Source: Bilabrum cf. latius (lineage: Eukaryota). From it: 64,000 bases of DNA. The notes under the pieces are model-generated. The model saw nothing but the letters and a program-made list of their open reading frames with translations, was not told where the DNA came from and made no database searches. The stretch is from NCBI GenBank assembly GCA_965178125.1, contig OZ237764.1, positions 186,001-250,000 on the forward strand. Direction: 5' to 3'. This document shows positions 3,452-57,203 of this stretch, piece by piece; position 1 is the first letter of the stretch, and each line of letters begins with the position of its first letter. The position numbers and the translations under genes are program-made.

Positions 3452-3673
3452 GGTGAAAGCCTGGCCTATTTCCCTGTCTTTGCGCATGGACTAGCCTTGG
3501 AACTACCCACTTGAACTTGAAACTAGCTGCTATTAAGAGCTCCTATCGCCTGAAGTCTGCGTGTGCAACCATTCGTGGCGCTCGTGGTTGGATTGCGAAA
3601 CGTTCAGATAACCAGCTGAATCTTGTGTATAGATCTACATTTTGGCGCGAGTCAAATACAGTTTAGGATAGCC

Positions 3674-16070: not shown

Positions 16071-16117
<47 letters not shown>

Positions 16118-18923: not shown

Positions 18924-18954
<31 letters not shown>

Positions 18955-20373: not shown

Positions 20374-20482
20374 ATTGGCCTCACCCACAATGCGAGAACT
20401 GGACTGGTTGTACCTGTCCGTTTGCTAGAGTATTTTGGCTCCGCATTACTCAATAAAAACTTCGCATTTTGGCACTACAAGC

Positions 20483-28600: not shown

Positions 28601-28987
28601 GCCGCCAAGGCCGCCAAGGCAGCCTCCGCTGGCTCCCCTGACGCCGGGCAGTCGGGCGGGGACTGGCAGCGAGCCGTGATCGAGCAAGTAGTGAACGTGC
28701 TATTCGAGTACAGGATTGAGCTGGGCGCCGCATTCGAGAAATTTGATCTGGACAACTCGGGGACGGTAAGCAGCGAGGAGTTCCGGATGGGCCTCAAGGC
28801 CCTGACGGGAGCGATCGGGTCCAACCTGACCGACATGCAGGCGGACGAGCTGCTGAAGTCGCTCGACTAGAATGGCGATGGAGTCATCTCGTATCAGGAG
28901 TTCCTGGAGGGATTCTCGGTGGTGGATACCGAGGCTAAGAGCAAAGGGGCGGCAACCGGTGGTGCCGCCAGCGGGGCGGGCAGATGA
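25617..28987 (+). CDS. PPEF: PPEF/RdgC-type Ser/Thr phosphatase with N-terminal CAP-Gly, IQ motif and about 8 EF-hand motifs, ~939 aa
   Basis: CAP-Gly (GTVKFIG...WIGVEL...GKHDG...RYF), IQ (AARKIQAAARMKIAK), PPP motifs GDTHG, GDFVDRG, RGNHE (across an intron), VHGG, WSDP, IRSHE, FSASRY. Introns 25720-25955, 26234-26386, 26887-27048. 3 in-frame TAGs; TGA stop. Confidence 0.92.
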
Positions 28988-32100: not shown

Positions 32101-33304
32101 CGGCCAAACGAGGATCCCTCATACCTCCGAATGCCATCTCGCTGAGCCCATAGGCAGCCCCCATGGCAATCGCGGGGAGCATCAGCGTCGGGTCCGATTG
32201 CGTGAGATCTTCAAACCAGAACAAGCCAGCAGTTTCCCACGACTCATCCCCCGTGAGCACGAGGTGCCTAGCCCCCAGCGAGCCCGCCATCATGGTGGGT
32301 ATGAACAGCAGTGGGGTGGACAGACTCCTCCAAGGGTAGCACCCTGCCGCGTGCAGTGCCGCCCTCAGCCCGCGAAAGGTGGTCATGGCCACCCCCATGC
32401 GCTCCCAGTAGGTTGCGTTGGGACCCAGGCGCAGGACAGCCCGCTCATGGGCGTGCATGAGCCGTCTCATTTCGGGCTGTGCGTCTTGCGACCTGCGGGG
32501 AAGAAGAGATGCGGCGAGGTGCGGTGCGGTTCACGGTGAACTGGTTGGGGCGCAGTGCAAGACGGGCGAGCGATGGGCTGCATCAACCGATGGCACGGCC
32601 ATACTCAGACTGGAGCAGTCACCGCGTGACAGTTCTGCTCACCGTGCGGCATTTCGTAGCGACATGATTTGCACAGGGAGCACAGCCAGCCGGTAGCCTA
32701 GCAAACCAACGAATATGGTTCCCATCCAATCCAGGCCAGTCAAATCGTGCAGATGCTGGAGCCACGAACCAGTTGTTGTCACTATATTCATATAGGCTTG
32801 GTACCATGACCCCTCTGGGTCTAGCCAGAGGACTGGGTAGGGATGGGGAGTGTCGACGTCGTAGGGGAAATCGGAGTAGGGGTTGATCGATGACTGCTGA
32901 ATCATCGGGGTATCAAAGAGCTACTCAGCGACTTGATCTATTCGATGCCGCGCTGGTGCCACTGGAACACCTGTCCCGGAAGCCGTAGCCTACGTTGTTG
33001 CTTCCGCTGATGCGCCAGCGCCAAGCAACCGAGCACCCCACCTGCGGGCTTTGCTGGCCCATCCTTCCGATTCCCCCCGCACATCGCAACTATCCTTCTC
33101 TTTGATGGAATCATGCACAGCTCTTGAGTGGCAGCCTCGTGAGAGGACACTTTCAACACCTCGTGATGTGATGCGAGCAACTTCCGGAACTCGATGCCGC
33201 GAAATTCTGCAAATTCTGACATGAACTGGGTTGTTGCAGGCAGACAAGCGATTCATCTGTAGTAGCTTTCGCACATATCGAGATGAAATTGTATTCTTCG
33301 ACAT
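29144..33304 (-). CDS. YidC/Oxa1/Cox18-family mitochondrial insertase with ~900-aa C-terminal extension, ~1336 aa
   Basis: LQHLHDLTGLDWMGTI...YRLAVLPVQI, GCYPWRSL, GLFWFEDLTQSDPTLMLP, LPAGLVVVWISN. Arg/Ser-rich N-terminus resembles a presequence (start 33304 or 33256). Intron 32493-32642. Frame continues through 9 TAGs in total to TGA 29144-29146. Confidence 0.85.
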
Positions 33305-36400: not shown

Positions 36401-39400
36401 CGATACACACGATGGATGGATCTTTCGCAAGGGCATCTGCAGTCGTTCCAGACGGACTCAAAGCAGAGTTGTCCCCATCCAAGGCCCAACCCTCCACACT
36501 GCAAGTAACGTGCGCTCTTCTAGGCCTGCAGAGTGCTCCAGTTGCACGGGCAGCTCTGGTGGGGCACCAGGCAGGCATCATCCTTCGGTTCGCCTCTTTC
36601 CTGCAGAGGGCCCAGCTGCTCGAGCAGAGTGACCAGGAGCCTGCGATCCAGGATGCGCTGCTCCGGGTGGCACAAGCACAGGAAGACATGCAGGAGGGTG
36701 CGAGATAGTACGTGCTGGCGACTGCGCATGCCGTGTCAGTGCTGCTTGGACTTGAGTGTGGAGCACGGGCTGCGGACGGGGCCACAAGGGATTCCGCCAC
36801 GGTGCGTGCGAAGCGATCGGTTTTGCTGTGCTACTGCTTGATGAACTCTTCCAGCGAGGCGCATGCCGCGGCTGCAGCGGAGACGTGGCTGGTCTTTGCG
36901 CACCGACGCGCGAAGTGGGATGCCGGCACCTTGGCCAGGTCTCTTGTACTGCTAGCTGCGATCCCTCGGCGCGAGGACGAGGGCGATGCGCGCAGCACAC
37001 GAGAGGAAGCAACCGTTAGAAGTGACCCTGCGGGTGAAAGAGGCCGGGCGATGAGCTGGAGAGCTCGAATTGCCACAGGGGCAAGCAGGCTAGGCCGGTC
37101 CGTTTGCAGAGGTTGTGCAGACAAATGGGAAGTGGCACTGGCAGATGTATCCTTCCCTGTGCATTCCGTCGAGTCAAATATCCCGCTTGGGTGTGTCGCT
37201 GCGTGCGCTGGCATTCTAGCGGAGGCGCATGCCTTGCAATATGTGGTCTGGGGTGATGCGGTGTCTGGTTTGCTCGCTCTGGTGCTAGAGCGGTTGGGAC
37301 AGGGGGATGTTGCAGAGGAGGAGGCAATCGTGTTCGTGCAAGTCTGCCTGTCGGTTGGAAGTGCCAAGCTGCAGGCCAGCCGTATCGTTGCAACTGCTGC
37401 ATTTGTGCACTGCACAGCGGTAGCATCCGCCAGATCGGCAAGTGCGTGTGGTCCCAGCACTTGGATGCGTGTGCTGGACCAGTGCGGGATACAGGCTTGC
37501 CAACAGGACCCTGAACTCGTTCCGCTCTTTCTGGTGCCCTGCCTCGCAGCAGCGGCCGAGTCGGGGCGCTGGGACGAGGGGCCCGGCAGACTGGTCGCCG
37601 GTCTGCTTCCGTTTGCGTCGATGCGATCGAATTCTTAGGGTGCCATGGAGGGGGAGCCGCGCAGCCTGGGTCCGCTTGCTGGCAGCCATGACTCCAGACT
37701 GGCCAGATAGCTGCAGTAGGCACCATCGACTGGTGCATCAACCGCATCACCACCAGTCGCAAGAATGAGCATGAACCGTGACTTTGAGGCAGCGCACGAT
37801 AGAGCAAATAGGCTAGTGCAAGCCCTAGTATAGGGCCCAGCTACAGGCCGCCAAACCCGTGGCGTGGCGGCGCAGGTTCTCGCCGGTGAGATGGTCAGGC
37901 CACCACCACCCAGCTTGGAGGCCGTGGACGAAAGCAGCAACCTGCCTTCCGACCATAGCATAGCACATGCAGCCGGTCTTAATGTGCGCATCGTGGAGAG
38001 ACTACGGGCCTACTAGAAAGAAGCAGTGATGTGGATGCACGCGCTTCTCTCGTGCGGCCTGGGCTGCCTACTTGCAGATGATATGGGCCTCGGTAAGACC
38101 GTGTAGGCGCTCGCCATGGTGGCTTCCTCGCTACTCGGGGCTGACGCGGCAGGAGTAGCAGGAGCTAGAGCGCTGGCAGGTGCCAGTGATGGTGAAGGCC
38201 AACCCAGCACCATTCTCTCAGCATCGTCGAAAGTGGCGCCGAGCAGTGAATCAACGACTGCCTCGGCAAGCGGGCCTGAGTTGCGTGCTTTGATCGTATG
38301 TCCAGCATCTGTGGTGCATCATTGGGTACACGAGTGCGAGAAATTTTTCCCTGCCGGCAGTGGCAGAGGCATGGGGTTGACAGCTGTGGCGTACACAGGG
38401 GGCGCAAAGGGCCGACAGGCAGCCCTATAGCGTTTATCTCGTGGTACCTGCAACGTGCTGGTGGCGCCATACTCGTCGATGCGAGGCGCAGTCAAGGAAG
38501 AGCTGCTGCAGCCCCTGGTGGCCGGACAGGGCACGACGCCGTGGGCCGTGTGTGTTCTGGACGAGGGACACGTGATCCGAAACCCTGCTACTGCAGCATC
38601 GCAGGCATGCAGACGCATCCGGGCCCGCCATAGGATCGTGCTGTCAGGGACACCAGTGCAGAACTCGGTCATGGATCTGTGGGCCGTCTTCGACTTTCTC
38701 GTCCCTGGTCTGCTGGGCTCCCATGGGCAGTTCCAAGAAACCTATCGGAGGCCAGTTCAGGCTTCGAGGCAGTCTGGGGCTACTGCTGCTCAGCTACAGG
38801 AGGCTCGCTCGGCTCTCAAGCAGCTGCACTCAGTTTGCCTCCCCTTCGTGCTCCGGCGCATGAAGCAGGACGTGCTGCCAGAGCTGCCACCTAAGGTTAT
38901 CCAAGATGTTGTGGTGGATCTCCAGCCCAGGTAGGCAGAGCTCTACCGTGCCCTTCAGGCTACCTAGGCAATACCACCGTCTGATCTCGGGCAATCTATA
39001 CAAACTAGGGAAGGAGATGCGTTGAGGAAAGCTGGCGAGAGTGATGCTAGTGGATCTAGCACGGGGAAGTCGAAAGGCGTTTCGCTCGCTGCACTCACAC
39101 GACTAAGACAGGTTTGCGGCCACCCGCGATTACTGCCGGCTGGATTGGGCGACTTGCCAAAGAAGGGTACGGCATAGTCCAAGCGATGCGCGACAGCTGG
39201 CACGAAAAGGCGGAGACATGTAGCCGATGCGGCTGAGCGGCCGCAGGAGGCCAGTAGCGCAGGTCCTCAAAGCGCGACAGAATGTGGTGAGTCGTACGAG
39301 GAGAGCGGGAAATTAATTGCGCTTGTCGAGCTCATGGAGTAGCTGGGGTTTTCGAGAGGCGAGCAAGTGGGAGGAGGAAGCAGCGAAGTTGGCAGGGCGA

Positions 39401-40035
39401 TGAAACGGAGACGCAAGCGTGCGCAGCGTACTTCAGCAGCATCGAGGGGCGCGAGTGCGCTAGCTCCCGTTGCCACTGCTGGTAGTCCGCGGCACCGTCT
39501 CCTGTTGTTTTCCTAGATGCGATCCATGCTTGACGCTGTGGAGGACCTGGTGCTTAGACGTGTCTTCCCTGCTTGCTCCTGGCTTCGGATTGACGGCAGC
39601 GTTCCAGGGTCCAGACGGGGGCAGCTTGCGCAGGCCTTCCAATCGGATCCTTCGGTTGACCTGATGCTGCTGACCACCTCGGTCGGTTCTCTGGGACTTA
39701 ACCTCTCTGCAGCGGACACGGTGATCATGCTAGACCATGACTGGAATCCCACTGTGGACCTGCAAGCTATGGACAGGGCGCACCGGATCGGGCAATAGAG
39801 GACCGTGCACGTGTTTCGTCTCATCTGCAAGGGTACTGTGGAGGAGGACGTGATGGCGCTGCAGAGGTTCAAGGCACAGGTGGCGAGGGCGGTGGTGAAC
39901 CAAGAGAACAGTGGAGGGGCGAGTGGCAGCGCAGGGGGTATAGCCGAAGCGATGGCAAGCAGACAGACCGCTCCCATTCGACAGAGAGCATCCAGCTCGA
40001 GGAGGTCTGGCCGAGATGACTCAGATGACGAATGA
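33435..40035 (+). CDS. BTAF1: Mot1/BTAF1 TBP-associated SNF2-family ATPase, ~2172 aa
   Basis: N-terminal HEAT region (LVSPRWQSRHGA, LDRFGDYSS...APVREAAA, SWHVRHGAWL); SNF2 core LADDMGLGKT, LIVCPASVVHHW, LDEGH, LSGTPVQN, LRRMK, RIDGS, GLNL, DWNP, QAMDRAHRIGQ. Intron 33493-33574. About 20 in-frame TAGs; TGA stop. Confidence 0.93.
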
Positions 40036-40156: not shown

Positions 40157-43100
40157 TTATCGCTGCCTTGGCGTCCTGGCAGTAGCAGCCACCAGCTCGT
40201 GCTCCGTCGGCTCATCCTGACCCACGCCCTCCAGCAGCGGCAGTCCTAATGCACCCCTTCCTCCCGTCGATGTTCCTCCTTCCGGCTTAAGACTGGGAGG
40301 CTTGGCTAGCACCTGGCGCACGCCCGACTCCTTGGAGCCCTTGGAGCCTTTGGACCCCTTGGAACTCTTGGACCCCTTTGAAGCCTTCGAGGTCACTGAG
40401 CCCACCGAACCTCGCCGATACCTCGCCCGAGAAGGCAGATACAGGTGCTTGGCAGCAAGCCCCGCCGCTTTCTTCGCTGGGATGGCATGAAGCAGAGCGA
40501 CCGCTGCTCCCCCGCGCACCATCACTTCCCCTCCCCCTCCAAGCAGCGACCGCTTCCCGCCACTCACGTGCATGCCTGCGAGGCCGGCGTAAGGCGATGC
40601 CAGCCCGGCTTTGACCAGCCTGCGGGCCTCCTCGTCGTCTTCATCGTTGAAACCGATGCGAACCTCGCCTTCGCCCTGCTTGGAGTTGCCTTTCCCTGCC
40701 GACATGGCGGCGAGGGCCTCCGCGTCTGCAGCGCTGGCCACGCTGTGCCTACGCCTCGACACCGCGCTGCCTCGCCTCTGGGACTGGCCCGAGTGCAGCT
40801 GGGAGCGCGATCCCACGGACCGCATGGATCCCCGCCTGCTACCGCTAGCGCTAGCGTTACCAACGCTGCCCGCTGAACGGCCAGCGAGGGATCGGCCTCG
40901 GCTGTGCGAGTCGTCCACGGAGCCCCGTCGCTTGGAGGGGCCGTGTCCGATCAGTGCCGCAACGCCGACATTGGCTGCACCGGAGAGGCCGCGACCTTGA
41001 GTCGACTTCAAGGAGGAGCCTGATACCAGCGCTTGCGTGGTTGCGTCCCGCCTGGCCTTTTGCACTGGGTCCCCGAGGCTGATGAGCGAGCCAGCCGTCG
41101 AGTCGGAGTCCTCCCCAGCGTCCGCAGAGCCGAGCGAAGGCCCAACGACTGCTCCTCCATCGATCGCATCTTGGTTCTTGTGCTCCACTAACGTCTCCTT
41201 CCGTCTGTTGACTCGCAGCTGCCTCCTTTTGGCTCGTCGCTTCCTCCTCCTGATGGCCTCCTGCTCCTCCTGCCGCAGCTCCCGCGCCTCTTCGTACCTG
41301 GAACGAGCCTGCAGCACCACTTGCTTGAGCCCGGACTTGATCTCAAACTTAGACAGATCGATCGCGGTGTCTCTCTCACCCCCCGCTGCCTGCTAGGTGT
41401 CACCATGCGTGGTATCGCCTACGTCTCCGGACGCTCTCCGAGCAGATGTGTTACCCCTGTGCGATTTTTCGCCTCCTTGACCCAGACCGAGCGCTGCTTT
41501 GAGCATCCTCCGCCGCCGCACTGCAGAGACCACGAGGTCGAAAGAAACGCCCTGCGTGCTGGCAGCACCTCCCGCCGCCAGGTCTGCAAACAGTCGAGAC
41601 ACTGCGTTGCCGTCGTCGCCGGCCCCTGCCACTTCCCCGCCTTCGCCGGTCTCACCATCCGCACCTGTGCCTGACCCGTCTTGGGCTGCCCCCCCTGCCA
41701 ATGTGCCGCCCGTGTTGACAATTGCCCCTCGTGCGGCAGCTTCCTACTCCCTTCTCAGCTTGAGCAGCTGCTCCTGCTTGGTTGCTGTGATCTTCTTCCA
41801 CGCGTTGCGCAGCGCAAACCGCTGCGCAGCCGTGAGGCCAGCCTCTGGATGGGACGATGCCGATCGCAGCTCCCCGGGTGCCACCACCAGACCATCAAGC
41901 GCACTCTTCGGCGCCCGGCGCCTTGCATCCTCTGCCTGCTACCGAACGCTAGCTTTCTTCGAAGCCCCACCGTGGCTTTCTCTGTTGCCCAACCTCCGCT
42001 TCTCGGCAATCTCGGCAGACTGCGCCAGCATGCGGAGACCCTCCCTCCCGCGAATCGATTTTGACCTGGCCTTGCCTCGCCTATTGCCAAGCATGCTCGA
42101 CTCGGGGTCTTGACCCTCCCGCCCTGGTCGCAGGTCGAACCGCGGAAACACGTAGTCACCCACGCGCAGCACGTCAGGCTCCTTGTATCCGCCGTTGCTG
42201 GGCCTCTTCCTCGCACGCTTCTTGGGCTTGGACCGCTCGGCAGCGGCGAGCGCCTTGTTGTGCTGGATGACAACCTCGTCGACCTGTATGCCGGCCGAGG
42301 ACTAGGGAGCTCGCACTGGGCGGCCCACCTGCGCCTTGCGTGCCGCCCTCAGAACGTCGGCGGCGCTACCTCCTCCAGTCCTGCCGGCCGACCGCTCCGC
42401 TGCCTCTAGCCCCTGCAACGCCTGCGCCATTAGTCTCTCACCCGCCCTGCTGCTGAACGCGCCGCTGTCTGACAAAATTTGCCGCACGGCCCCGCGGGCC
42501 TGGCGAGCCGTCATGGCTCGGCCCGACGTCTTGCGCACGGGGGAGAGGGCCAGGTCGAGACGAGCTGGAGCAGAGCTGCCTCCCTGCACGCCAGCACGCC
42601 TGCCTGCAGGACTAGCCATCGTGGGCCCCCGGGGGGACTGCGCCTCAGCAATAACTACGGTGCGCCGCGTCTCGCCCTCTACAGGGGACTCGGCGCGCGC
42701 TGGGGCCTGCGCTTCCCCCTGCTGTTTCGGTCCTTGTTGGGATCGGGGCCTCGCCTACTCTTCGCCTCCCGTCGTGTCAGACTGGCGCAAGGCAGCAGCG
42801 CGCACGAACCCAACAGACCTGGGCGGCGGGGCGACCTTCTTGATGCCTGCACCGCCGAGCCCGACTTGAGTTGGAACCTGGGCCCGTGTATCGGGCTACT
42901 CATGGCCTCCAGTGGTACCGCCAGCACCAAGTGCCATCTACGTAGCGCCACGGTGTCCCGGCTTTGGGGTAAAGAGCCTGGCGCGAGGTCGGGGAACCGG
43001 TCTGCGGAGCGGCCGCCTGCCGTGGTGCCGGACCAGATTGCGAGCAGCGGCGCGCAGATCGGCACCACCGTCAATCTCCCGCGCCACGCGGCCCTTCGCC

Positions 43101-46100
43101 TTGCGAACCTTGACTTGGTGCTTCCGAGATGCTAGCACCATCTTGCCCAGAGACCTGGCACGCTGTGCGCTCTGCAGTTCCTCTCGCCTCAGATGCAAGC
43201 CCTCAAGGGCCGCGTCACCGCCGCCTGCCGATGCGTCCGTCTGCTTCGTGACGGCTGTGATACGCGAGTACCCGCCACTGCTCGTCGCAGTCAACCTAGT
43301 GTTGCCAGTCCTCGGCCTGGAGCTGGCCCTGCTTGAGAATGGCCTGCCGCGCCGCGTGCCGCCAGGAGTGATCGGCCGACGGCTTCTGGCGCGGGCCTGC
43401 ATGGCCTCCGCAGCTGCCTAGACGTGGACAGGGTCCGGCTACTATCCTTCACCGCTCCCCTGTTCCTACCCTAGGACGATAGCGAATGCCCCTGGAAATA
43501 AGGTACCGAGGGTTCCAGCCTGCGCGGTCTCATGGGTCTGCTGCAGCCCTTTGTTAAAGGCAGCCGATGCCGCGGCAGCATTCGTCTGTTTGCTCTTCCG
43601 TAGGAAGCTGCCGTACGTGCCTATGCCTCGAATGCCACCATCCAATGTGCGGAAGTGGAACGCAGTGGAGGAGCGAGGGTGTCGCCTCGGCAGGTCGTGT
43701 CGAGAAGCGCCTGCCGTACCACCCTGCACCGAACTGCCGGTTGCATCGTCCGCAACCATTGCCTGCTCCGGACTACCGTCAGCAGCGCCATCATGATGCA
43801 CTGAACCTTCTATCCCTTCACCCGAATCGCCCGAACCCTCCGCGGTCTCGGCGGCCGTTGAAGTTGGGGACAGCTGCTGCACCGGTGCAGAGCCGCCAGC
43901 GTCCTCTGCGCCCATGTCACCGGTTGTGCCGTGCACCTTACCACTCCCTGCGTCCATTTGATCTGCACTGGACCCCGCCACCCGCTCCGCCTCATCCTTC
44001 AGGGCACCAAGCCCGACAAACAGGTCCACATCACCTGCGGTTCCCCTCGTCGTCCCGCCACCCAGCGCTCCCGGCATGCTCGACCGCCGCAGGGACCTTG
44101 CATTTGCGAGGGCAGGTGAGGGTCCCTTCTGGACCGATGCTTTGCTCACTGCGCGCTCCTTTGGCGCCATGGGCACGTGCTTCAGGAACTTGCGGGAGCC
44201 AGCCTCCGCCGCGGTCGGCGTGAATGGTATCCTGCTGTGGGAGCTGCTCGACGCCAGCCGCATCTCACGGAGAAGCGGGTGGACGTCCATGCTGGCCGAC
44301 CCCCGGGAGTGACCAGCACTGGCACCCTCTGGCTACAGGGCGCGTGTGGCGTCGGCGGGCGGTGTAGAGAACCCGTCGCCCATCCCTATGGTAGCGCGCC
44401 TGGGTCTGCCCGGCTTCTTTGGGCCATCACCCTATCCCGAATCACCGGCGGGCGGTGGCACCAGCCGGCGCGTCGGAGATGCAAGGGCGATCGGAGCAGC
44501 GGGTGGGGGCGGCGGCTTGGTGGTGCGTCCCTGCCGCAGCCGTTCCGCATCCAATAGTGCGGAATCAGGCCGGTCGTCTTCGGGTCGCTTGCTGATGTAC
44601 ATGTCGGGGGAGTCTGCACGGTCCTTTTGTTCTGGTGCCATCGTCTTGTGAAGCATCTGTGAGGACGTCTCGCTGCTGCCTGGCCGGGCCGGTGGTGCCG
44701 GTGCCCTCGTCTTCCTGCCTCCGCTGGGGGGTGCTGGGCGACTGGGTGGTTTAGGTCTGGAGGGAGGCTTGGGGCTCGATACTCTGGCTAATGAGGGCAC
44801 CTCGCCTAGTATCACTGGTGCTGGCCCAGGCCCAGCGGTAGCAGCTGCAGACGAGGCAGTGCCTGCCTGGCTGCTTGCTGGCCGTGCAGCTGCAGTGGAG
44901 GGTAGGAACCGTCGGCGCGTTGGTGTCAGCGGCGGGGGGCGATCCGATGATGCAGGCGAAGCATTCTGCCCATGCTGCTGAAAGCCCATCTTGCTTGGTC
45001 CGCTGGGCCCGCCTCGGCTCCCAGTGTCTCTAGAAGAAAACGAGAAACGGCTGCGCGACTGTCCGCTCTGCTGCAGTACAGCAGCTGTGGTGGCAGGCTG
45101 GGCTCGCCAGCCGGCCAGCCCGGCTTGCAGGTGGCCTCTCGAGGACCTGCTCTCTGCTGCAACATGGGACTGGGCTGCCGTCGTGATGGCGGCCCCCGAC
45201 GGCCTCTTGTGCTTGCCCGGCGAGGAGCGGGTGGACGGGAGGTCAGGCATCACCACGTCCTTGCCCAACTTGTTGCTCAGCCGACGGCTCATCCTCCTCT
45301 GTCGCATGGCTTGCCTCTCCTCGATGCTGAGCGGCTGCATGCGGCTGAACCGACGGGCGATCTCCGAGCGGCGCACAGAATCGGTTGCCACCACGCCATC
45401 GCCCTCTTCCTGCTCGGCCTCCCCCCGACGCGCCCCTCCGAGTCCTGCCACGCTGACTCCTCCGATTGATACCCTGCGGCCCGAGGTGCTGGGCCTGCGA
45501 CCCACACCTTGAGAGGCGCGGCGGCCCTTCGTGGCTTCAGGGCCTCCCGCCGAGGCTACGGAGTTGCGCCGCTTCACCGCGGCCGCCTGCCTCTCCTTCT
45601 CCCGCTGACGCGCCTCTGCCGCTGCCTGCGCCGCCGCTGCAGCTGCACCTGAAGAGTCCGTAAGGAGGGTTAGAAATTCCCTGAAATCCAGCTCGCCGGA
45701 CCCGTCGGCATCCACCGAGCTCATCAGTGCCTTTACCTCGCCTTCGCTGTCCGCGAGGCCGACCGAGACCAGCGGCTCGAGCAGTTCGTCGATGCCGATC
45801 GTGCCGCCACCGTCTGCATCCAGCGCCTCGAACCACCGCTTCAGAAGCACAAGGTTGCGGCCCAGTCGATCAACCTCAGCGTGCCTACCGTGGGTGGAGA
45901 GCCAGCGCCTGAATGCGAACGAGTCATCGATCGTGCCGACCCGGAATCGCAGCGGCAGCGGCTCCTCCTCCTCCTCTTCCTCGTCGTCGCTAGAACTATC
46001 ACCACCGTTGGCCCCATCATGCTCGCCGTCGTCGCTGTTTCCACTGCCCAGCCCGCGCAGGCCTCTCCGCAGGTACTCCCTGTTGCTCGCTTCGCCACCA

Positions 46101-47395
46101 TCACCGCTAGCATCGCTCTCCTCTCCCTCGGACAGGGTGTCTCCCGTGGAGCGCGAGCCAGCGTCCGAGTCCTTATCACCGTCACCGTCATGGCCATGGC
46201 CAACATCCCCGCCGTCGGTGTCCTGCGAGTCCCATGCGACGGGCTAGCCGTCCGCATGCACCGCTGACTGCCCCGCGATCGCAGCCCCGGCCGGGTCCAT
46301 CAGGGGCACATCTCGGAGGCCTGTAGACCGCCCATCCCACCCGCTGCCCCCATCGTGTTCCTCGTCCTCGTCCTCGCCCGGCTGCCTGACGTATTTCTTC
46401 CCGCTGGGTTTGGGCACGCCCACCAGCGCCGTTCTGAGGAACCTGCGCATGATGCGTCTCTGCTCCGCCGTGACCCTAGCCTGGCTGGAGTTGCGGGCGG
46501 ATGATCCACCGTGCCCTCGTGCTGAATCTGCCCTTGTGTCTGCACCTGCAAGGTCCGGGGGCAGCTGCAGCACCACCCCGGCACCGGGCACCACCCGCTG
46601 CCCGGCCCCCTCAGCATTGCTCGCAGGTGACTCGGAGCCATTCGAGCCAAGCACTGCGCTCCCTGAGGCTGATACACCAGTGACACCATCGGGACTAGAA
46701 AGCAGCGGGGCCACACCGCCCGCCTTGGCTGGGTGCGACCACCCGGCCCCTTGCGACCCTCCTCCGGCGGCGACTGCTGCGAGCAGCAGCTGAGCTGTCT
46801 GCTGCAGCTGGGCCCGGCGCCGTCTTCGATCTCGAACCTCTTTCTTATCAAATACAAATGGCATCTCTTTGCTTGCGTCGAAATCCGTGGCTGCTTCAAA
46901 GCCTAGCCGGGGTGTGGTGGTCGGGGTCTGTCCGCCGCCCAGTGCTCGACCAGCGATAGTGCCCAACTCTGTGGATCGCTGATTCGTTGCAAGCAAGATT
47001 CTATCCTCAGCTGCCAATGATGCGAGTGAATCCTCGCTATCCCGCCTCTCCTGTCTTCGGTATGGGATATCTCGGTCCAAGTGCATGCCTTCCTCAACTG
47101 CAGCAAATACCCTGTCCCTGCCCGCTGGCGGTGGAGACTTTCCAGGGACAGTACCAAGTGATTTCGCGTGAAATTGGCGTTGAACCAGTCTCTCTTGGCG
47201 TCGCGCGGTTTGAACCGATATTGAAGCGTCTACAGCCTCTAATACCGCCTGAAGCCTCGGCGAAGCCAGTGGGGTACGTTCCTAGTCCTGTTCCTTTTCG
47301 AACTTCCGGCCAGTTGACCGCAGTCCTGGCACAAAATTGCCATTCTTTCGTATTGGCCTTTCGAGTAGTTCTCTTGGCGGACGACGCATCGCCAT
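40157..47395 (-). CDS. Large low-complexity protein with one EF-hand pair, ~2412 aa
   Basis: Eight track ORFs share a frame joined by about 14 TAGs. EF-hands DADGGGTIGIDE and DADGSGELDFREF at ~45670-45825. ATG 47395, TAA 40157-40159. Confidence 0.78.
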
Positions 47396-47515
47396 GGATG
47401 CCAACAGGTAATGTGCTGTCCGTTGCCGATCGGGGCCCACACGGTTCCGGTTTTCTAGGCGCCGGAGCGGTTCGGGTCGTCACGATTATACCCGAAAACC
47501 AGATCGACAATAGGT

Positions 47516-48425
47516 ATGAGTGCAACTGAACGATCAATAAGGTAGCAAATCATTACACCTGATGCCAAAGCTGGAAAGTAGGGCCATACAACGGACTCCG
47601 TTCGGCTTGCGAATGGTGTTGACGTGTCGGCCTGCTAGCTCTGGCCGGCCTTTTTAGAGATGCTCGATGCTGTGGAACGATTCTAGTACAAGCGGTTTGC
47701 AGATTGTGTCAACGATGAGTTCGGGACCGTAGATTTTGATCCGTTCACAGGTGAGTATTCACAGGCCAACCTACGCAGGTTGGTACACTCCCGCATATAC
47801 GTGTACAACATGCGATGTGCTCATTTGGAACCGCAGGAGCGAATAATATTATGAATGATATGGACGACTGGCACACATTTTACAAGAATGCCATCAAGAG
47901 TGCCAATGCCCTCGATGTGAGAAGGCTGTCATGTGCATGCGGGGAATCGTCGCCTCCTTCTATTTGTGATGCCAATCCAAGCCCCCGAGTCTCCCACTTG
48001 CAATTATGCAGCTTACATGTTGGCTAGAAGTGTAGCGATTCAATGAGAAGCTGAGCGATGATGCCAGCATGGGCTACGTGGAAGTCCAGTTCATTCAGCA
48101 CATGATCACGCCGGACGGGACCGTCCTGCACTAGTGGGATGCGGTTGCAACCGTGGTGTTCGTGTGGGACGAGGCGAAGAAGCGCTACATTGAGCTGCGA
48201 TGGCACGCGAGCCTTCGCGGAGACGCCGCGGGCAGCGGGAAGCTCGCGACTGTGCTGGCCCGTGCGGCGTGCGGCAAGGCTGGGGCACTCGTGATGCTCG
48301 TGCTCGCGTGTCTTGTGGCTCTGCTTGCGGTGCTGATCGCGAAGGACATCGTGCCTGATTATGGCGCGAAAGAGCTGGCAAGCTCAGCCTGGCAAATGGC
48401 AGCCAAGCCATTGGGGTGGGCCTGA
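47516..48425 (+). CDS. SnoaL/NTF2-like domain protein with C-terminal transmembrane helix, ~242 aa
   Basis: ATG 47516; introns 47751-47836 and 47917-48011; 6 in-frame TAGs. NTF2-like C-terminal strands ATVVFVWDEAKKRYIELRWHAS and TM ALVMLVLACLVALLAVLIA. TGA stop. Confidence 0.65.
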
Positions 48426-48649
48426 CGTGGCTGATGGATCGATGAGTGGATTCATCAGCCCCAGCCACCATGCAGCGGAAAGGTACTAGAGTGGGGAATC
48501 TCCGCCGCCCTGCTCGTCGACAAGATGACCTAGAATTCAGTTTGCATGGCGCTGCTGTGTGGTTTGTCGCATGCATAGATCTACTTGACTTTGCTGTACG
48601 AAGAGGGCCGACTGTTCTCGAAAAAAGCTAACCTCTGCGTGCCGTTTGC

Positions 48650-51600
48650 TTACAGCCCCATGTCATCCTCATCCTCCTCGTCAGTGGTGCGCCCAGATCC
48701 GAACTGAAACCCGCCAGCATGGCTGGACATCCGGCTGGACTCACGTACAAGCGCACCGGGACCTGTCAGGTCACCGTCCAGCCCAGGGCCGTGAAGGTCA
48801 CCGTGGCCATGGTCAGTCTTGGCCCCGCTGGCACCTGCATCAGCGTACATGGCGCCCCGCTGCAGGCTGCCCCGACGCCCATCCACTCCCATTTCCGCCG
48901 GCATGTGCATGGACCCGTGCATCAGCATTCGGCGAAGATCACCACCACCCCCCTGCGTATCTCTGTCCCCCGCCCGGAATGACTCTGCAGCCATGCTAGC
49001 CCCGAGTCCAAGTGCGAGACCACCGGTGTGCGACTGCGACTGCTGTGAGGGCGAGCGCGAGTGTGAACGGCCCGGGCTGTGAGTGTGAGGGCCGCTGCCG
49101 GAGCCACCCAGACCAATAGCCAGGTCATCATCTGCCGAAGAGAAGCCCATCCGCCCGCCATCGGCACCCCTGTCTCCACCCATTCGCATGGGAATGGCTT
49201 GCACAGCGTGCCTCCAATTCCCCGAGGCGCGGGCCAGGGAGGCAGCCGGGGTGCCGCCGTGGTACATGCTGCCGCTCATGTGACTTCCGCCTTCCGATTC
49301 CGAGTCGTTGCCCGTGGAGAACACATTGCGGGCCCTGCCAGGCCCCGCAGGCATGCCGTACGCCAGTGCGAGCTCGGGGCCCAGGTTCAGCGGCGCCCCA
49401 CCCATGCCATCGCTCTCGGCGCTGTGCGAGGGGGCGTGGGAATAGCCAGCGCCCGTGTCTGCCTGGTCAGGCGCACCTCCATCCCTGGTTGATCCAGCAC
49501 CGGGTGCAGCCTTGCTGCCTCCTTCGCCCTAGCCTTTGCCCAGCCTAGATTTGGTCCTGCCACGTGGCGCGCCTGCTCCGGCCCTGCCTTGCCCTCCTGT
49601 CTGCCCCCCTGGTTGCACAGGGGACTCGCGCTGCAGCCGTCCCGTGCTGTCTCGGGGCGGCACCCGCACGATCCTGGGCGGTGACTTGAACTGGCCTCCC
49701 ACTCCAGGAGATACGGGAGGCTGGTGGCTGCTGGACACCGAATCCAGGCCATTCGAGTAGAGCGAGTCGGAGCGTCCCCCCATCACTGGATCGCCTCTGC
49801 CCCCATTTGCGTACAGATGAGCAGCGTCTCCAGCACCCGCTTGTCCACCGGTGGTGTCAAGGTCGTCGTGGCCAAAGCTTCGCAGCGTGTGGCGTCGGCT
49901 CGCCGATCGGTCCCCACCCGTGGCGCCACCACCCAATCTACTCTGGCTATGCATCATCCTCTGCCGCTAGGAATCAGACACTCGGCTAGATTGACGCGTG
50001 TACAAGCCACGGCTCGAGGGCGACGGCAATTGGCTGCTGCCACCCCTCTAGAGTGCCGCGGCACTGCCTGCCCTCGAGCCTGGGTTGCCCCCACCCCCCA
50101 GCACGAGTCCTGAGCTCGATTGCGCATGCAGAGACACCTGCCGCTCCTGTCGCAGCTGCTTTCCCTAGACCAATTCATTCCGGTAGGCATGATCTGCGAG
50201 TAACGCCTTCCGCGCGCCTCCTGCCTCTGCTATCTCGCTCGGAGACAGCTCCTCATCAGAGAGCGCATCGCCCCCTGGCAGCACGCAACATGGAAAGAGC
50301 CTGCTTGCGATGAACCTCGCCTCCGCCCTAATCTAGGAGTTCACTGTGATCACCATCGCGAAGATGAGGGCCCCTTGCAGCGGGGCGAGCAGCCCACATA
50401 TGTAGCCGAACGGCACCAGCTTGACCGGTAAGTCCTCTGTCAGTACACCCCTGTCGGTCACGGGCTTGTTTCTATGCGGACTAGGGTCCACGACGAGAGA
50501 GGCGATCCGGAGCGAGATGGGCCCAAGGACGGTCAGAAGGTAGGCTCCTGGATACACGGCCATGGCTAGCAGCCGAGCAGGACAGGCGCAGTGGCAGCAC
50601 GACGGTTCTTTTGGAGTGGTGGTGACAGGGCGGGCGGCTGCACGGGCCTGCTGTAGCGAGGGCAGTGCAGCCGGTCCGGTGCCCCCCTGCCAGCGACTGT
50701 CGTCCCATTGGTCACGCGATCTGACGGTGGAAGTGTGCGAGGCACTTTTCTATCGCTTGTCCGGCAGTCGGTTGCCCGTTGGAGCGGTCCCGATCCCGGT
50801 GCCGCCTCCTCCGAGTCCCTGGTCCTGGTCTGGCAATGGCAGCTGCGCGAGCCTCGCCTGCCTGCGGACCGCCAGTCTGCCGCTCTAGTGCAGCACCATT
50901 CCGAATACCACCGCGATGTACAGAAACGCCAGCGCACGAGGGATGTATAGGATGAGTATCGAGTTCGCGTGACCGAGCTCCTCATCGTACCAGCACCAAG
51001 AGGTTTGGTATACCTGCGGCGAGGTGGAGGGCGAGGGGGGGGGGGGGGACCGAGAGAGAGGTCCAACACACTGTTAGGATCGTTGAGGCATGATAACAGG
51101 ATATTGACTGTGCCCTTGGCAAGTGCTTGCGTTCGCGCGTCCAATATTCTCACCGTGTCGGCCTGAATGCAATGCAACAAGATGCACACCGCGATCCCAG
51201 GGACCCACGCAACGTGATAGTAGTAGTAGCGATACTGGGTGAACCTGCGAGGCCAAACGTATGCACATGCTGCCAAGTAGCGGGGGTACAGCCACCCAAA
51301 TCTAATATGCAAGCTCTTGCTGCATCATTGTTCAATGGTGTCCTCCTCACCTGCCGAAGAACTCTTTCTTATAGAAGTAGGCCCACCACAACAATTCGGT
51401 TGCGAGTATAACAGACCATGCACCTGAGCAAATAGGAGCAAATGCCAGCAACCGCGCCTGCCAGATGCAAGCGTCTGAGCTTGGCCCATTCCCAGCAACA
51501 CCAAAACTAAGCGACCACGATATACCAACCAGCATGTCGCTAAACGTGAGAAACGCAAGAAGAACAGTAAAACTGAACTTCAAACTTTCAATCTTTTGCG

Positions 51601-51868: not shown

Positions 51869-54800
51869 TCAACTGTTGCTGTCCGGCCATTCTGAAGCTG
51901 GCTCCACTACACCAATGCTGCTACTGGCTGCCTCAATAGTCCCTGTAGCACCACCCACCCCTTCGTTCCGTACTGCACCAGCCGCATCGGCACCCTCGCT
52001 CAATGCATCGCCAGCTTCTTCGGCACCCTAGCTCAATGCTGCGCTAGCTTCTTCGGCACCCTCGCTCGAGACATCGCCAGCCGCATCCACAGCGCCAGAA
52101 GCGACCTCCACACCCTCACCCAACGCCGTGCCAGCCGCATCGGCACCCTCGCTCAATGCTGCGCCAGCTTCATCGGCACCCTCGCTCGAGACATCGCCAG
52201 CCGCATCCACAGCGCCAGAAGCGACCTCCACACCCTCACCCAACGCCGTGCCGGCTGCATCAGCACCCTCGCTCAATGCTGCTCCAGCTTCTTCGGCACC
52301 CTCGCTTAATGCTGCTCCAGCCGCATCGGCTCCCTCGCTCAAGACATCGCCGGCCGCAACGGCACCCTCGCTCAAGACATCGCCAGCCGCATCCACAGCG
52401 CCAGAAGCGACCTCCACACCCTCACCCAACGCCGTGCCGGCTGCATCGGCACCCTCGTTCAATGCTGCGCCAGCCGCATCGGCTCCCTCGCTTAATGCTG
52501 CGCCAGCCGCATCGGCTCCCTCGCTTAATGCTGCTCCAGCTTCATCGGCTCCCTCGCCCAAGACATCGCCAGCCGCATCCACAGCGCCAGAAGCGACCTC
52601 CACACCCTCACCCAACGCCGTGCCGGCCGCATCGGCACCCTCGCTCAATGCTGCTCCAGCTTCATCGGCACCCTCGCTCAAGACATCGCCGGCCGCAACG
52701 GCTCCCTCGCTCAAGACATCGCCAGCCGCATCCACAGCGCCAGAAGCGACCTCCACACCCTCACCCAACGCCGTGCCGGCCGCATCGGCACCCTCGCTCA
52801 ATGCTGCGCCAGCCGCATCGGCTCCCTCGCTCAACACATCGCCAGCCGCATCCACAGCGCCAGAAGCGACCTCCACACCCTCACCCAACGCCGTGCCGGC
52901 CGCATCGGCACCCTCGCTCAATGCTGCGCCAGCTTCTTCGGCACCCTCGCTCAAGACATCGCCAGCCGCATCCACAGCGCCAGAAGCGACCTCCACACCC
53001 TCACCCAACGCCGTGCCGGCCGCATCGGCTCCCTCGCTCAACACATCGCCAGCCGCATCCACAGCGCCAGAAGCGACCTCCACACCCTCACCCAACGCCG
53101 TGCCGGCCGCATCGGCACCCTCGCTCAATGCTGCGCCAGCTTCTTCGGCACCCTCGCTCAAGACATCGCCAGCCGCATCCACAGCGCCAGAAGCGACCTC
53201 CACACCCTCACCCAACGCCGTGCCGGCCGCATCGGCTCCCTCGCTCAATGCTGCGCCAGCCGCATCGGCTCCCTCGCTCAACACATCGCCAGCCGCATCG
53301 GCTCCCTCGCTCAAGGCATCGCCAGCCGCATCGGCACCCTCGCTCAAGACATCGCCGGCCGCAACGGCACCCTCGCTCAAGACATCGCCAGCCGCATCCA
53401 CAGCGCCAGAAGCGACCTCCACACCCTCACCCAACGCCGTGCCGGCCGCATCGGCTCCCTCGCTCAATGCTGCGCCAGCCGCATCGGCTCCCTCGCTCGA
53501 GACATCGCCGGCCGCAACGGCACCCTCGCTCAAGACATCGCCAGCCGCATCCACAGCGCCAGAAGCGACCTCCACACCCTCACCCAACGCCGTGCCGGCC
53601 GCATCGGCTCCCTCGCTCAAGACATCGCCGGCCGCAACGGCACCCTCGCTCAAGACATCGCCAGCCGCATCCACAGCGCCAGAAGCGACCTCCACACCCT
53701 CACCCAACGCCGTGCCGGCCGCATCGGCTCCCTCGCTCAATGCTGCGCCAGCCGCATCGGCTCCCTCGCTCAACACATCGCCAGCCGCATCCACAGCGCC
53801 AGAAGCGACCTCCACACCCTCACCCAACGCCGTGCCGGCCGCATCGGCACCCTCGCTCAATGCTGCTCCAGCTTCTTCGGCACCCTCGCTCAAGACATCG
53901 CCAGCCGCATCGGCTCCCTCGCTCAAGACATCGCCAGCCGCATCCACAGCGCCAGAAGCGACCTCCACACCCTCACCCAACGCCGTGCCGGCCGCATCGG
54001 CTCCCTCGCTCAATGCTGCGCCAGCTTCATCGGCTCCCTCGCTCAAGGCATCGCCAGCCGCATCCACAGCGCCAGAAGCGACCTCCACACCCTCACCCAA
54101 CGCCGTGCCGGCCGCATCGGTACCCTTACCCAAGACATCGCCAGCTTCATCGGCACCCTCGCTCAAGACATCGCCAGCCGCATCCATAGCGCCAGAAGCG
54201 ACCTCCACACCCTCACTCACTGCATCGCCAGCCGAATCCAAAGCTCCTTGTGCAATATGATTCGCATTAGACAATGCATCTACAGCAGGCTTAGGTGTGG
54301 GGATTTGCTCCAGATTATCTGCAGATATCGTCGCCATTGCGGCGGGCTAGCTTGGGACTTGCTAGTCAATGAAAGTCCTGTTGAGTGGGTCCGTACCGTC
54401 CGCGGGTTCGAGTGGTTGCCCTGCTGCAGTAAGTCTGCCTTGGTCGAGCTCGTGCATGGGGTCAACTGGAACATCTAGCTGCGTATCCCCAGCAGTAGTG
54501 ATAGGCGGTTCCGTGATATCTGTCTCGTGCAACTCCATGTTGCCGCCTGCTACTGAGTCTCCTTCGGGTGAAGTTGAGGTATGGCTACCAGATGAGTCGC
54601 TAGCATTCTTATCACCACTTCCCGCTACTTCTCCAGTCACATTTGACGGGAGAAGCATGGATCGCAGTTCCCTGTGCATGGCGAGGTAGGCAGGCAAGCT
54701 CGCTCCACCGTCAGGCTTAGCCGACAGACCGAGCGTCGAGGCTACGGTGCTGGCGGGTACCACGAAAGCCACAGCAGCGATGCAGGCCAGGACAATCCAA

Positions 54801-57105
54801 AGCACAAGCATGCTGCGGCACCACGAGTTTGGCTGCTACTCGTACGGCACCGCATCGTCCCCATCGTCCCCATCGCCCCCCGCATCGTCCCGGTCTATAA
54901 TCGAGCCGCCATCGTCTCTGACTCCACCGCGCCCACCTAGGCCTCCCGACGCTTCGTCCGAAGTGGCCTGCACTAGCTTCAGCCATCTCATCTGCCAGTC
55001 GTCACTGCCAGTCAGGGCGTATTCGCCCCCCGGGGACGCAATCACGCAAGTGGGGTTCTGCATCGGTGACTCCTTCGGTGGCACGGGGCCGCACCAGCCA
55101 TCCGTGGCACACGCGCGGAACGGGTCAAACAGGGCCATGCGCTTCAGAGAGTCGATGGAAAGCACGTGCACAGCTCCATCCTGATCTGCTACTGACACCT
55201 GTCGAAAAGGACCGCTCACGTGCATAGCCACAGACACCTTCGAGGAGACTGTGGTCCAACCCGCGAGACTCCATGGCCCGGCCGCGATCGAGTTGGCAAC
55301 ACCCGTGCGGCTGGAACTGCCAGCAGACCCCGGTGTCGCCGCAAATGACCCAGCCCCGCCAGAGACACCGGTGAAGGCCCCACCCTGCGGCCCCGGCTGC
55401 GATGCAGCCTTGGACACGAAGGCAGGGGGCTGGTCCCCGGTGGCCGACAGCGGCGGTCCACCTAGCCGCACCTCATCCTGCTATGCATTCGGTGGCTGCG
55501 ACCCGCTGGCTTGGGCATGCTTAGCAACAAAATTCGGTCCGGTTCCTAGCTTTGATGCGTGTCCAGGTTCAGGGTAGGCAGCAGACGAGGACACAAGCCC
55601 CATGCCGCTCCCAGGCAGCGCCGGGCCCGCCTCCTCAGCTGGACCATCCGGCTGCGTGACTGCACCACCACCAAACAAAGCACCCGGTCCCGCTGGCATG
55701 GTTCCGGTCGACTACTCCCGTTTCCAGAGGGACAGTACCGTCCAGCACGATGACCCGCCCCTCTCCAGCACCAGAAGCTCGTCTGCGCTCGCGAATGCGC
55801 ACTGGTATGCTTCCCACGAGATGGAGGTTGGCTTCTTCTTGCGTCGCCTGGCGTAGTAGGCCTCTTTTTCTGGGGAGAGCTAGTTCCCTATGGCGACCGC
55901 TCCCACGGAGGGCAGCACGTGCATGCCTTTGTGCTTTAGGTCAATCACACGAGCAGTGCCGTCGTCGCTGCACGTAGCGATCTGCGCGGAGGTCAATACG
56001 AGTAGAAGGGGTGGGGGAGGGAGGGCAATGACGGAATAAAAGAGAGAGACCACCATCCATGCAGCAAAGATGGCATTGGAAATTATATTGTAGACCTCTA
56101 TTGCAGCAACCGTATCACCGATCAAGATGGGTCCCGCAAGGCAGCCATGCTGTGCCAGTCCTCATCATTGTCCGTGCTAGTCGAACGCAGTCACGCCCCC
56201 CCCCCCCAATCAGTCTCACCAATTCGCCCCTGCTGGCTTCGCACGGCAAGAATGCTATGTCTCTGATATCTGTTTCGTGCGCCTGAATGGTGGCGACACA
56301 CGTCACCGCACCGAGCGCATTCTCTCTGTGCCCGGGCTCGTCGCTTGCAAGCGCGCCGAGCCATGCGGACTGGTCCTTGGGCAGGGCCAGCACGTGCACC
56401 TGGCCAGTCGATGTGCCAAGTGCGAGGTGCATGCGCTTTGGGTGCCAGGCCAGGCAGTTTACGTCGGGCAACTCGGGGGAGCCCTCGGGCGGAGGCTGGA
56501 ACATTCCGCCAGCTGTCGAGACCAGGCCAAACTCGCCAACCTGGACGCTGTTCTCCGCAGGAAGTACAAGAAGAACTCGAACGTAACCAGTGCTGCCAAC
56601 AGCTAGCACGCTGCACTGCGAATCGTGAACAGGCGCTGTCGTCGCTCAACAACTGAATGCTACCAACTAAGGAGGGCCTGCGCACCTGCATCTTGCAAAA
56701 CCACAACTTACCCCGGAAAGCTACTTCGGCGCTCGAGTGAGCTTCTTCGATGCTTGCATGCACCACATATACTAATCTTTCCCTTCAAAGACGTGAGCCC
56801 CTATGGTAGTTGGCATGGGTGCCTCCCCAGAATCCCTAGCATCAGCAAGGGCCTACTTTGGAGGCAGGGTCATTAGCTCCTGCGGTTGTGCGCGGGACAA
56901 TTGGGTATTCTAAGCAGGAAAGATATATGCTTGTAGACAAACAACTTCGTTCATACGCATAATACCGCACCAATCTGTTCGGGGTATCTCCACCACCGCC
57001 GCTCGCAAGCATCCCTACGACCGGCTGCCCTTCAAGGGTACGCCCAAGCTGGCAGGAGGATAAGACAGGCGCCTGGGCGCTACCTTCAATCAATATTTCA
57101 GCCAT
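51869..57105 (-). CDS. Sec12/PREB-like WD40 type II membrane protein with very long repetitive C-terminal domain, ~1603 aa
   Basis: N-terminal ASGGGGDTPNRL resembles the Sec12 K-loop region (GGGG...PN.L). WD40 blades VNCLAWHP...LALGTSTGQVHV, AHETDIRDIAF...IATCSDDGTARVID, ASPGGEYALTGSDDWQMRW. One TM (MLVLWIVLACIAAVAFVV, 54811-54758), then repeats. Three phase-0 introns: 56880-56970, 56616-56711, 55982-56219. 9 in-frame TAGs; TGA 51869-51871. Confidence 0.72.
51975..54245 (-). repeat. Coding tandem array of interleaved 33-nt (11-aa) and 54-nt (18-aa) units
   Basis: Units EGADAAGTALG / EGADAAGAALS / EGAVAAGDVLS and EGVEVASGAVDAAGDVLS, near-identical at DNA level over ~2.2 kb. Confidence 0.95.
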
Positions 57106-57203
57106 GACCCGCAGGACCACCGAAAGTACATATTTTCAATCCATTGGCAAATGTACTCGTAATTAAGCTGAATTTAATCAGAATCGTGCTGGCCGCATTT
57201 CGT

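Follow-up and report, generated by a model that had tools for sequence, protein, structure and literature searches.

The code in which UAG specifies glutamine whilst UAA still terminates was described for the first time from Iotanema spirale (Panek et al. 2017, PMC5304391), and reassignments of UAG alone to glutamine were subsequently recorded in Protocruzia tuzeti and in two lineages of phyllopharyngean ciliates (McGowan et al. 2024, PMC11687900). According to these two papers, most nuclear reassignments shift UAA and UAG together, and other UAG-only codes are known in which the codon is read as leucine (the rhizarian exLh) or as serine (Scotinosphaera). Here we describe a 64 kb stretch of nuclear DNA (positions 186,001 to 250,000 of contig OZ237764.1; ‘the window’ always refers to this whole stretch) in which TAG is almost certainly a glutamine codon and in which, with high probability, both TAA and TGA have remained stops. 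The decoupling of TAG from TAA has precedent: this variant of the code has been in print since 2017, and it is the organism that is new to it. The more widespread relative of this code, in which UAA and UAG are both read as glutamine (NCBI table 6), is found in many ciliates, hexamitin diplomonads, Ulvophyceae, Streblomastix and Amoeboaphelidium.

The reading frames of the window were defined by treating TAG as a sense codon and stopping only at TAA or TGA. Under this definition the longest frames extend over 2,441, 2,278, 2,166, 1,755, 1,431, 1,318 and 1,267 codons, compared with a single longest frame of 1,224 codons when all three standard stops are applied. Reading through TAA instead (with TAG and TGA as stops) gives top frames of 1,224 and 861 codons, and reading through TGA instead gives 1,325 and 1,224 codons; the long frames are opened solely by TAG read-through, and nothing comparable is obtained with either of the other two codons. 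When tallied over 19 open reading frame (ORF) segments (19,146 codons, 57.4 kb), the in-frame codons include 114 TAG, 0 TAA and 0 TGA alongside 206 CAA and 551 CAG, and other codons ending in A are common (320 GAA and 128 AAA). TAG accounts for about 0.6% of all codons and about 13% of the glutamine codons. In these segments the two off-frames contain TAA 39 and 67 times, and its absence from the coding frame is therefore not mere rarity driven by the content of guanine plus cytosine (GC). Counted over both strands of the window, the stop trinucleotides occur 310 (TAA), 937 (TAG) and 1,549 (TGA) times. Fifteen frames have a visible 3' end, 13 of which end at TGA and two at TAA, both of the latter on the minus strand (40157-40159 and 48650-48652). 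A sequence-only reading of this DNA had arrived at these same numbers, and had further claimed that no in-frame TAA interrupts more than 50 kb of coding sequence in spite of the abundance of CAA; both statements were reproduced on recounting.

The zero count of TAA is partly circular, because the frames were delimited by TAA and TGA, and a recount was therefore made on frames bounded by TGA. Seven ORFs have TGA on both sides (7,700 codons) and contain 42 TAG, 0 TAA, 77 CAA and 183 CAG codons; at the CAA/CAG ratio about 17.7 TAA would be expected in this set, and the Poisson probability of observing none is approximately 2e-8. If TGA is taken as the sole stop, the gene frames gain in-frame TAAs of three kinds: those situated 5' of the first ATG (in the histidine kinase and Mot1 genes, the frame starting at 60046 and the 15181-20445 frame), one TAA in the gap that separates the presumed two exons of the gene at 48650, and the two 3' ends at 40157-40159 and 48650-48652. 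The pattern of TAG, TAA and TGA usage is far beyond what chance would produce, and the observation is confirmed. UGA is still a terminator, with no in-frame TGA in the 19,146 codons and 13 of the 15 frames ending there.

The identity of the amino acid is best seen in the gene for Mot1/BTAF1 (33538..40035, plus strand), which encodes HEAT repeats followed by SNF2 and Helicase_C domains, carries 20 in-frame TAG codons and ends at TGA; its assignment comes from Pfam, from an alignment with its 120 best database homologues and from a codon alignment with a metagenomic orthologue. Four of the 20 TAG columns in the protein alignment have Q in 120, 120, 119 and 109 of the 120 homologues, and at a fifth 76 of them have it. 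The four columns correspond to the SNF2 motifs RAY[Q], GLGKTV[Q], QPR[Q] and LLFS[Q], and the codons concerned lie on the plus strand at 38014..38016 (RAY[Q]KEAV, 120 of 120), 38104..38106 (GLGKTV[Q]A, 109 of 120), 38932..38934 (120 of 120, and TAG in the metagenomic orthologue too) and 39514..39516 (LLFS[Q]M, 119 of 120). The remaining columns are variable or gapped, apart from two that are taken up below. In the hybrid histidine kinase gene (11170..14970, plus strand; HATPase_c and Response_reg by Pfam, 15 in-frame TAG, TGA end), the TAG at 12871-12873 is aligned to the N-box Q in all three of the PDB kinases displayed.

The metagenomic orthologue (L001) was the one locus confirmed from 27 pattern matches when metagenome_contigs was scanned; a scan of genome_contigs with the C-terminal part of Mot1 gave 30 pattern matches, none of which was confirmed. 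L001 is 2,489 bp long with 56% GC, and its Mot1 part has 54% amino-acid identity to the window gene, with the four-fold degenerate third positions saturated (37 of 135 identical, where 0.25 is expected). It has seven in-frame TAG codons, no in-frame TAA or TGA, and a TGA end near the end of the window gene. At the nine window TAG columns that could be aligned, L001 has glutamine at seven (encoded by TAG three times, CAA twice and CAG twice), the other two being A and P; in the reverse direction, glutamine is found in the window at four of the five aligned TAG columns of L001. This exchange of codons is the strongest single test, and shows TAG to be interchangeable with CAA and CAG. The positions of TAG are not significantly conserved between the window and L001, with three TAG/TAG pairs among 20 columns with Q in both, against about 1.4 expected.

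A closer relative was found through the gene at 48650, in an exhaustive HMMER search. The database protein P0244 (380 residues) is 89% identical by BLASTP (92% by phmmer) to residues 431-807 of the window protein, and P0245 has 75 residues that are 88% identical to residues 171-246, ending just before the window TAG at codon 247, from which it follows that a close relative carries the same in-frame TAG. An identical-length member of the cluster of P0245 shares a 3,354-bp contig with P0244; on this contig of the close relative, P0244 and P0248 are encoded. When set against the window frame 48650-51073, P0244, P0245 and P0248 are fragments, P0245 stopping at a TAG and P0244 beginning after one. 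The reading of TAG is shared by at least one relative that is close and one that is distant, so that it is a trait of the lineage and not a quirk of one assembly.

The case for TAA is of a different kind. That it has no appreciable use as a sense codon within the window is very well supported: for the 114 TAG codons observed, about 43 TAA would be expected at the CAA/CAG ratio (206/551), and about 16 at the lowest NNA/NNG ratio of any two-fold pair (TTA/TTG, 33/229). That it is a working terminator is likely, on the indirect evidence of the two genes that end there. The TAA at 40157..40159 (minus strand) closes a gene of 2,440 codons (40160..47479; frame 40157-47479), which encodes a giant low-complexity protein with one EF-hand pair recognised by Pfam and contains 15 in-frame TAG, 0 TAA and 0 TGA; the next in-frame TGA lies 31 codons on. 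The TAA at 48650..48652 (minus strand) closes an 807-codon frame (48653..51073; frame 48650-51073) that encodes a membrane protein with a long disordered tail and contains seven in-frame TAGs, with a likely upstream exon within 51347-51847; here the next in-frame TGA lies 64 codons on. The sequence-only reading had described the DNA after both TAAs as lower in GC, which was borne out by measurement: from the last 60 codons to the next 90 nt, GC falls from 0.66 to 0.44 at 40157-40159 and from 0.65 to 0.49 at 48650-48652. Among 1,580 coding windows of 90 nt (mean GC 0.64), only 0.13% have a GC of 0.44 or less and 2.0% of 0.49 or less, and a like fall is seen at the twelve TGA ends that were scored (downstream GC 0.43-0.60). 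The codon-usage log-odds per codon drops across the TAA ends from 0.24 to 0.06 (40157) and from 0.34 to 0.07 (48650), the values after TGA ends being -0.42 to 0.17. The spacing of convergent genes was also compared. Three TGA/TGA pairs have stop-to-stop spacers of 210, 154 and 156 bp; the TAA at 40157 lies 121 bp from the convergent Mot1 stop, which would shrink to 25 bp if the codon were read through, and the TAA at 48650 lies 224 bp from the convergent small gene at 47970-48425, which would shrink to 29 bp. This small gene, a plus-strand frame of 151 codons between the two TAA-ended genes, has two TAGs, a C-terminal hydrophobic stretch and a TGA end; as a frame without a Pfam match it was treated as a gene in the spacing analysis only.

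Glutamine is not the only meaning that TAG might have. The codon might stand for another amino acid (Glu, Ser, Leu, Tyr or Lys) or be stop or sense according to context, as in Condylostoma or Blastocrithidia, and a handful of observations weigh on that side. The histidine kinase TAG at 12682-12684 (plus strand), the one conserved column at odds with glutamine, is aligned to a conserved E (the ‘kIEaGkl’ stretch) in all three of the PDB kinases displayed; one Mot1 TAG column has K in 92, R in 18 and T in 10 of the 120 homologues and no Q at all, and another has D in 78, E in 31 and Q in 7. P0244 has S at the window TAG 49529-49531, which amounts to one TAG/TCG difference within a disordered tail that evolves fast, and the two TAGs in the second exon of the PPEF-type phosphatase gene fall in variable or gapped columns and are uninformative. 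The gene at 29144 (minus strand) ends in CGC TAG TGA (29144-29152), so that a terminating TAG is possible there; this TAG is either a C-terminal glutamine codon or a relic of a tandem stop. Codes in which UAG is Leu, Ser or Glu do exist (PMC11687900). Set against these are the four invariant or near-invariant Q columns of Mot1, the N-box Q of the kinase and the exchange of TAG with CAA or CAG at four Q columns between the window and L001. A dual role leaves no sign in the window either: no frame requires TAG as a terminator, and the TAGs are spread evenly along the genes (13, 8, 7, 11, 10, 11, 18, 7, 8 and 12 per decile, n=105), neither enriched nor depleted towards the 3' end (12 of the 105 in the last decile). 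GC over the next 90 nt is below 0.5 for only two of 106 TAGs, a rate that matches the coding background, leaving 104 that are followed by DNA of coding-like GC. In codes of the Condylostoma and Blastocrithidia type, by contrast, the reassigned codon also terminates and is depleted near true stops. Little credence is accordingly given to another amino acid or to a dual meaning, and less still, to the point of being negligible, to the notion that the TAGs are not translated as such, whether through pseudogenes, assembly errors or the editing of UAG to CAG in the mRNA. Editing is compatible with what DNA alone can tell, but systematic U-to-C editing is not known to occur at nuclear stop codons; 114 TAGs with 0 TAA and 0 TGA in 19,146 codons are unlike decay, the same pattern recurs in the independent metagenomic L001, and the fragmented predicted proteins of the close relative imply it as well. 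That TAG encodes glutamine can hence be held with near certainty.

For TAA, the natural competitor is the table 6 type of code, in which both TAG and TAA would be glutamine, TAA would be too rare at high GC to appear in 57 kb, and the two apparent ends would be read through. TAA is indeed the rarest of the three stop trinucleotides in the window; only two genes end at it, neither directly after a conserved domain, as the sequence-only reading had itself pointed out; and UAA and UAG move together in most nuclear reassignments (PMC5304391, PMC11687900). Yet in-frame codons ending in A are common, TAA is present off-frame in the same DNA, and none is seen where 16-43 would be expected over all segments or 17.7 in the TGA-to-TGA set. 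GC and codon score drop directly past both TAAs, and reading through them would leave convergent spacers of 25 and 29 bp, where 154-210 bp is found elsewhere, all of which makes a table 6 code very improbable. A second possibility, which is improbable but to a somewhat lesser degree, is that TAG is glutamine and TAA is unassigned or avoided, the two frames truly ending elsewhere, for instance by way of an unrecognised 3' intron. There are just two such ends, and introns do occur in this genome (one of the GT-AG type at 26887-27048); however, no GT donor is present at or just before either TAA, and both ends resemble the 13 TGA ends in GC drop and in spacing. Where the single eRF1 of a eukaryote has given up UAG alone and continues to recognise UGA, there is no known reason why UAA should be lost, and the UAG-only codes that have been described retain UAA for termination (PMC5304391). 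Some points nevertheless tell against a terminating TAA. A count of 0 in 19,146 codons gives a 95% upper bound of about 1.6e-4 TAA per codon, with which rarer sense use is compatible, and TAA may be an unassigned codon or one with a very rare sense meaning. P0244 and the 48650 gene share the C-terminus ...DEEDEDDMGL, which fits a stop at TAA, but a gene caller using the standard code halts at TAA regardless, and the shared end does not discriminate. The 40157 end is without comparative support, because no homologue of the last 400 residues of that gene was found at E<=1e-5 among 8,000 scored candidates (220-700 aa); the 275-bp tail of L001 past its Mot1 stop also contains nothing resembling the C-terminus of the 40157 gene. 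Taken as a whole, the statement that TAG is glutamine whilst TAA and TGA are stops is considered highly probable. It is what the sequence-only reading had proposed in separating TAG, as a sense codon, from TAA and TGA as terminators, and every test made within the window and both relatives agree with it, termination at TAA being judged from indirect signals at the two ends.

Cytoplasmic translation in this organism would then read UAG as glutamine, and terminate at UGA in most genes and at UAA in a minority. In the treatment given in PMC5304391, reading of UAG alone needs a tRNA with the anticodon CUA, the simplest origin of which is a single change in tRNA-Gln(CUG), and the single eukaryotic eRF1 must drop UAG whilst keeping UAA and UGA; the candidate change in the eRF1 of Iotanema is T32G in the GTS motif. 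By analogy with what is established for this type of code, a tRNA-Gln with anticodon CUA, which is unable to pair with UAA, would decode UAG, no tRNA with the anticodon UUA would be expected, and the N-domain of eRF1, with its GTS, NIKS and YxCxxxF regions, would be expected to have lost recognition of UAG and to have kept that of UAA and UGA; the sequence-only reading had put forward the same requirements. Within the 64 kb of the window, ARAGORN found no tRNA gene, no Rfam family scored above threshold, and no eRF1 gene was present among the genes scanned with Pfam.

With respect to the described systems, the nearest is that of I. spirale (Metamonada: Fornicata), where UAG is likewise glutamine, UAA and UGA are stops, and the same tRNA-Gln(CUA) and weakened recognition of UAG by eRF1 have been predicted (PMC5304391). 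However, UAA is the predominant stop of Iotanema, whereas 13 of the 15 frames here end at TGA and two at TAA; Iotanema is an anaerobic fornicate studied by transcriptome, whereas an O2-dependent dioxygenase of the PhyH family is encoded here. The window also differs in its GC content of 62% and in having a PPEF phosphatase that groups with stramenopile-type proteins. Because stop usage, the PhyH dioxygenase, GC and the PPEF grouping all differ, the reassignment is probably independent of that in Iotanema. In Protocruzia tuzeti and the phyllopharyngean ciliates UAG but not UAA is translated as glutamine, just as here (PMC11687900). No ciliate-named match appears in the homologue lists of Mot1 or PPEF. 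The presence of at least 15 genes on both strands of 64 kb at 62% GC is, we assume, unlike ciliate macronuclear DNA. Since the single-gene tree described below suggests a stramenopile, the organism is, on present evidence, none of the known cases in which UAG alone is glutamine. Table 6 codes share the reading of UAG as glutamine, presumably through a tRNA derived from tRNA-Gln(CUG), but are defined by TAA being glutamine too, which is at variance with the 0 TAA against 114 TAG and the two TAA ends found here. In exLh and Scotinosphaera UAG has been decoupled and UAA kept, as in the window, with the difference that the amino acid is another one (PMC5304391, PMC11687900), glutamine being indicated here by the conserved columns and the codon exchange. 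‘Code 15’ (TAG as glutamine) of crAss-like and other phages (PMC9523058) is the same table on paper. It belongs to a bacterial-virus context with RF1 and RF2, whereas the window is eukaryotic nuclear DNA with eukaryotic genes and an intron of the spliceosomal type.

The placement of the organism was approached through the homologues of two genes. Homologues of Mot1 reach at most about 39% identity over near-full-length alignments (61% is found over just 21% of the query), and the names of the matches span fungi, animals and plants, without a signal for placement. The named matches of PPEF are nearly all from stramenopiles (oomycetes, brown algae, Tribonema and Phaeothamnion). Over all matches, named or not, the highest identities are 54-56%, and one record is labelled Symbiodinium sp. 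KB8. This record is suspected to be a contaminant, because the other dinoflagellate PPEF match is just 30% identical. In a quick maximum-likelihood tree of 44 rows, supported only by the Shimodaira–Hasegawa-like approximate likelihood ratio test (SH-aLRT), the window protein falls in a clade of 13 rows (SH-aLRT 99, including the KB8 record) that stands beside a clade of oomycetes and ochrophytes. One gene and one quick tree thus offer a lead that the organism may be a stramenopile outside the oomycetes and ochrophytes. The nearest PPEF relatives are complete proteins of 952-963 residues called under the standard code, and the reassignment seems to be confined to a sub-lineage, as the PPEF gene of these relatives carries no TAG. 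Tentatively, and with rather more doubt than confidence, the source can be pictured as an undescribed lineage of aerobic, GC-rich protists with compact genomes, probably within the stramenopiles but outside the oomycetes and ochrophytes, in which UAG is glutamine, UGA the main stop and UAA a minor one. Its sampled members would then number at least three: this organism, the relative that is about 89% identical in one protein and the relative that is 54% identical in Mot1.

The DNA of the window is nuclear and belongs to a eukaryote whose genome is rich in GC and in genes, compact and poor in introns. The GC content of the window ranges from 0.54 to 0.68 across 2-kb segments, at least 15 genes lie on its two strands with short spacers between them, and Pfam recognises ordinary eukaryotic gene families in the read-through frames. 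Besides those already described, these comprise a CLC chloride channel (20908..23769, plus strand; five TAGs, TGA end), a PPEF-type phosphatase with EF hands (26414..28987, plus strand; TGA end) that is split by the GT-AG intron of 162 nt at 26887-27048, and the PhyH-family dioxygenase (870..2078, minus strand; three TAGs, TGA end). For the CLC domain, the ESM Atlas returned only generic eukaryotic CLC clusters with scores of at most 0.88, and no taxonomic lead. The second exon of the PPEF gene (27005-28987, plus strand) has a GC content at third codon positions of 0.88, compared with about 0.6-0.75 in the other genes, and still contains its two TAGs, which suggests the strong codon bias of a highly expressed gene. 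Long antisense frames such as that at 26321-29143 (minus strand, 941 codons, opposite the PPEF gene) were rejected as by-products of GC-rich coding DNA, being without Pfam matches and having an inverted distribution of GC by codon position. A giant-virus origin was weighed because variant codes are treated in a giant-virus catalogue paper (PMC13524828); it was rejected in view of the ordinary eukaryotic genes, the GT-AG intron and the lack of any Pfam match recognised as a viral hallmark. Exact 50-nt matches of the window were sought in viral_contigs and none was present.

Other frames lie on both strands. On the plus strand, a low-complexity frame of 2,277 codons (3620..10453) has nine TAGs and TGA at both sides, a frame of 924 codons (57108..59882) has eight TAGs and a TGA end, and an uncertain gene at 2126-3223 is among the 15 frames with a visible 3' end. 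On the minus strand, there is a frame of 1,754 codons (15181..20445; seven TAGs, TGA end) and one of 1,128 codons (29144..32530) with seven TAGs, the last of which abuts the terminal TGA; the latter, which is without a Pfam match, looks Oxa1-like by eye. A repeat-rich frame of 1,430 codons (51869..56161, minus strand) has seven TAGs and a TGA end, and contains, chiefly at 52000-54300, about 700 residues of near-perfect tandem repeats with units like GADAAGTALGEGVEVASGAVDAAGDVLSE; its sole Pfam match is to Apolipoprotein, below threshold, and the GC skew goes down to -0.375 in 52001-54000. The open-ended frame at 60046-63999 (plus strand) is built of about 25 tandem copies of the 22-residue unit AGAQDVPKPLKRPAKKPSSEAG followed by a coiled-coil-like region. 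It has just one TAG in its 1,318 codons, and the AT skew is 0.52 in 60001-62000.

Separations of UAG from UAA are few, the cases given in PMC5304391 and PMC11687900 being a rhizarian, Iotanema, Scotinosphaera, Protocruzia and some phyllopharyngean ciliates. Such codes bear on whether eRF1 and tRNA wobble force UAG and UAA to evolve jointly. The present case is set apart by its GC content of 62%, by having UGA and not UAA as the main terminator, by resting on contiguous genomic DNA and not on a transcriptome, and by having relatives at two depths; the finding is real, rare and useful. As gene calls made with the standard code break at every TAG, as seen in P0245 and P0244, the proteins of this lineage are largely missing from databases or truncated in them. 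No variant nuclear code from stramenopiles, labyrinthulomycetes or eukaryotic metagenome-assembled genomes came to light in a search of the literature, whose partial coverage of journals leaves room for such a report to exist. If the lineage does belong to the stramenopiles, this would be the first report of a variant nuclear code from that group. It would also be the first UAG-only reassignment for which chromosome-scale genomic DNA is at hand, and would open the predictions of Panek et al. (2017) on the tRNA(CUA) and eRF1 to direct checking.

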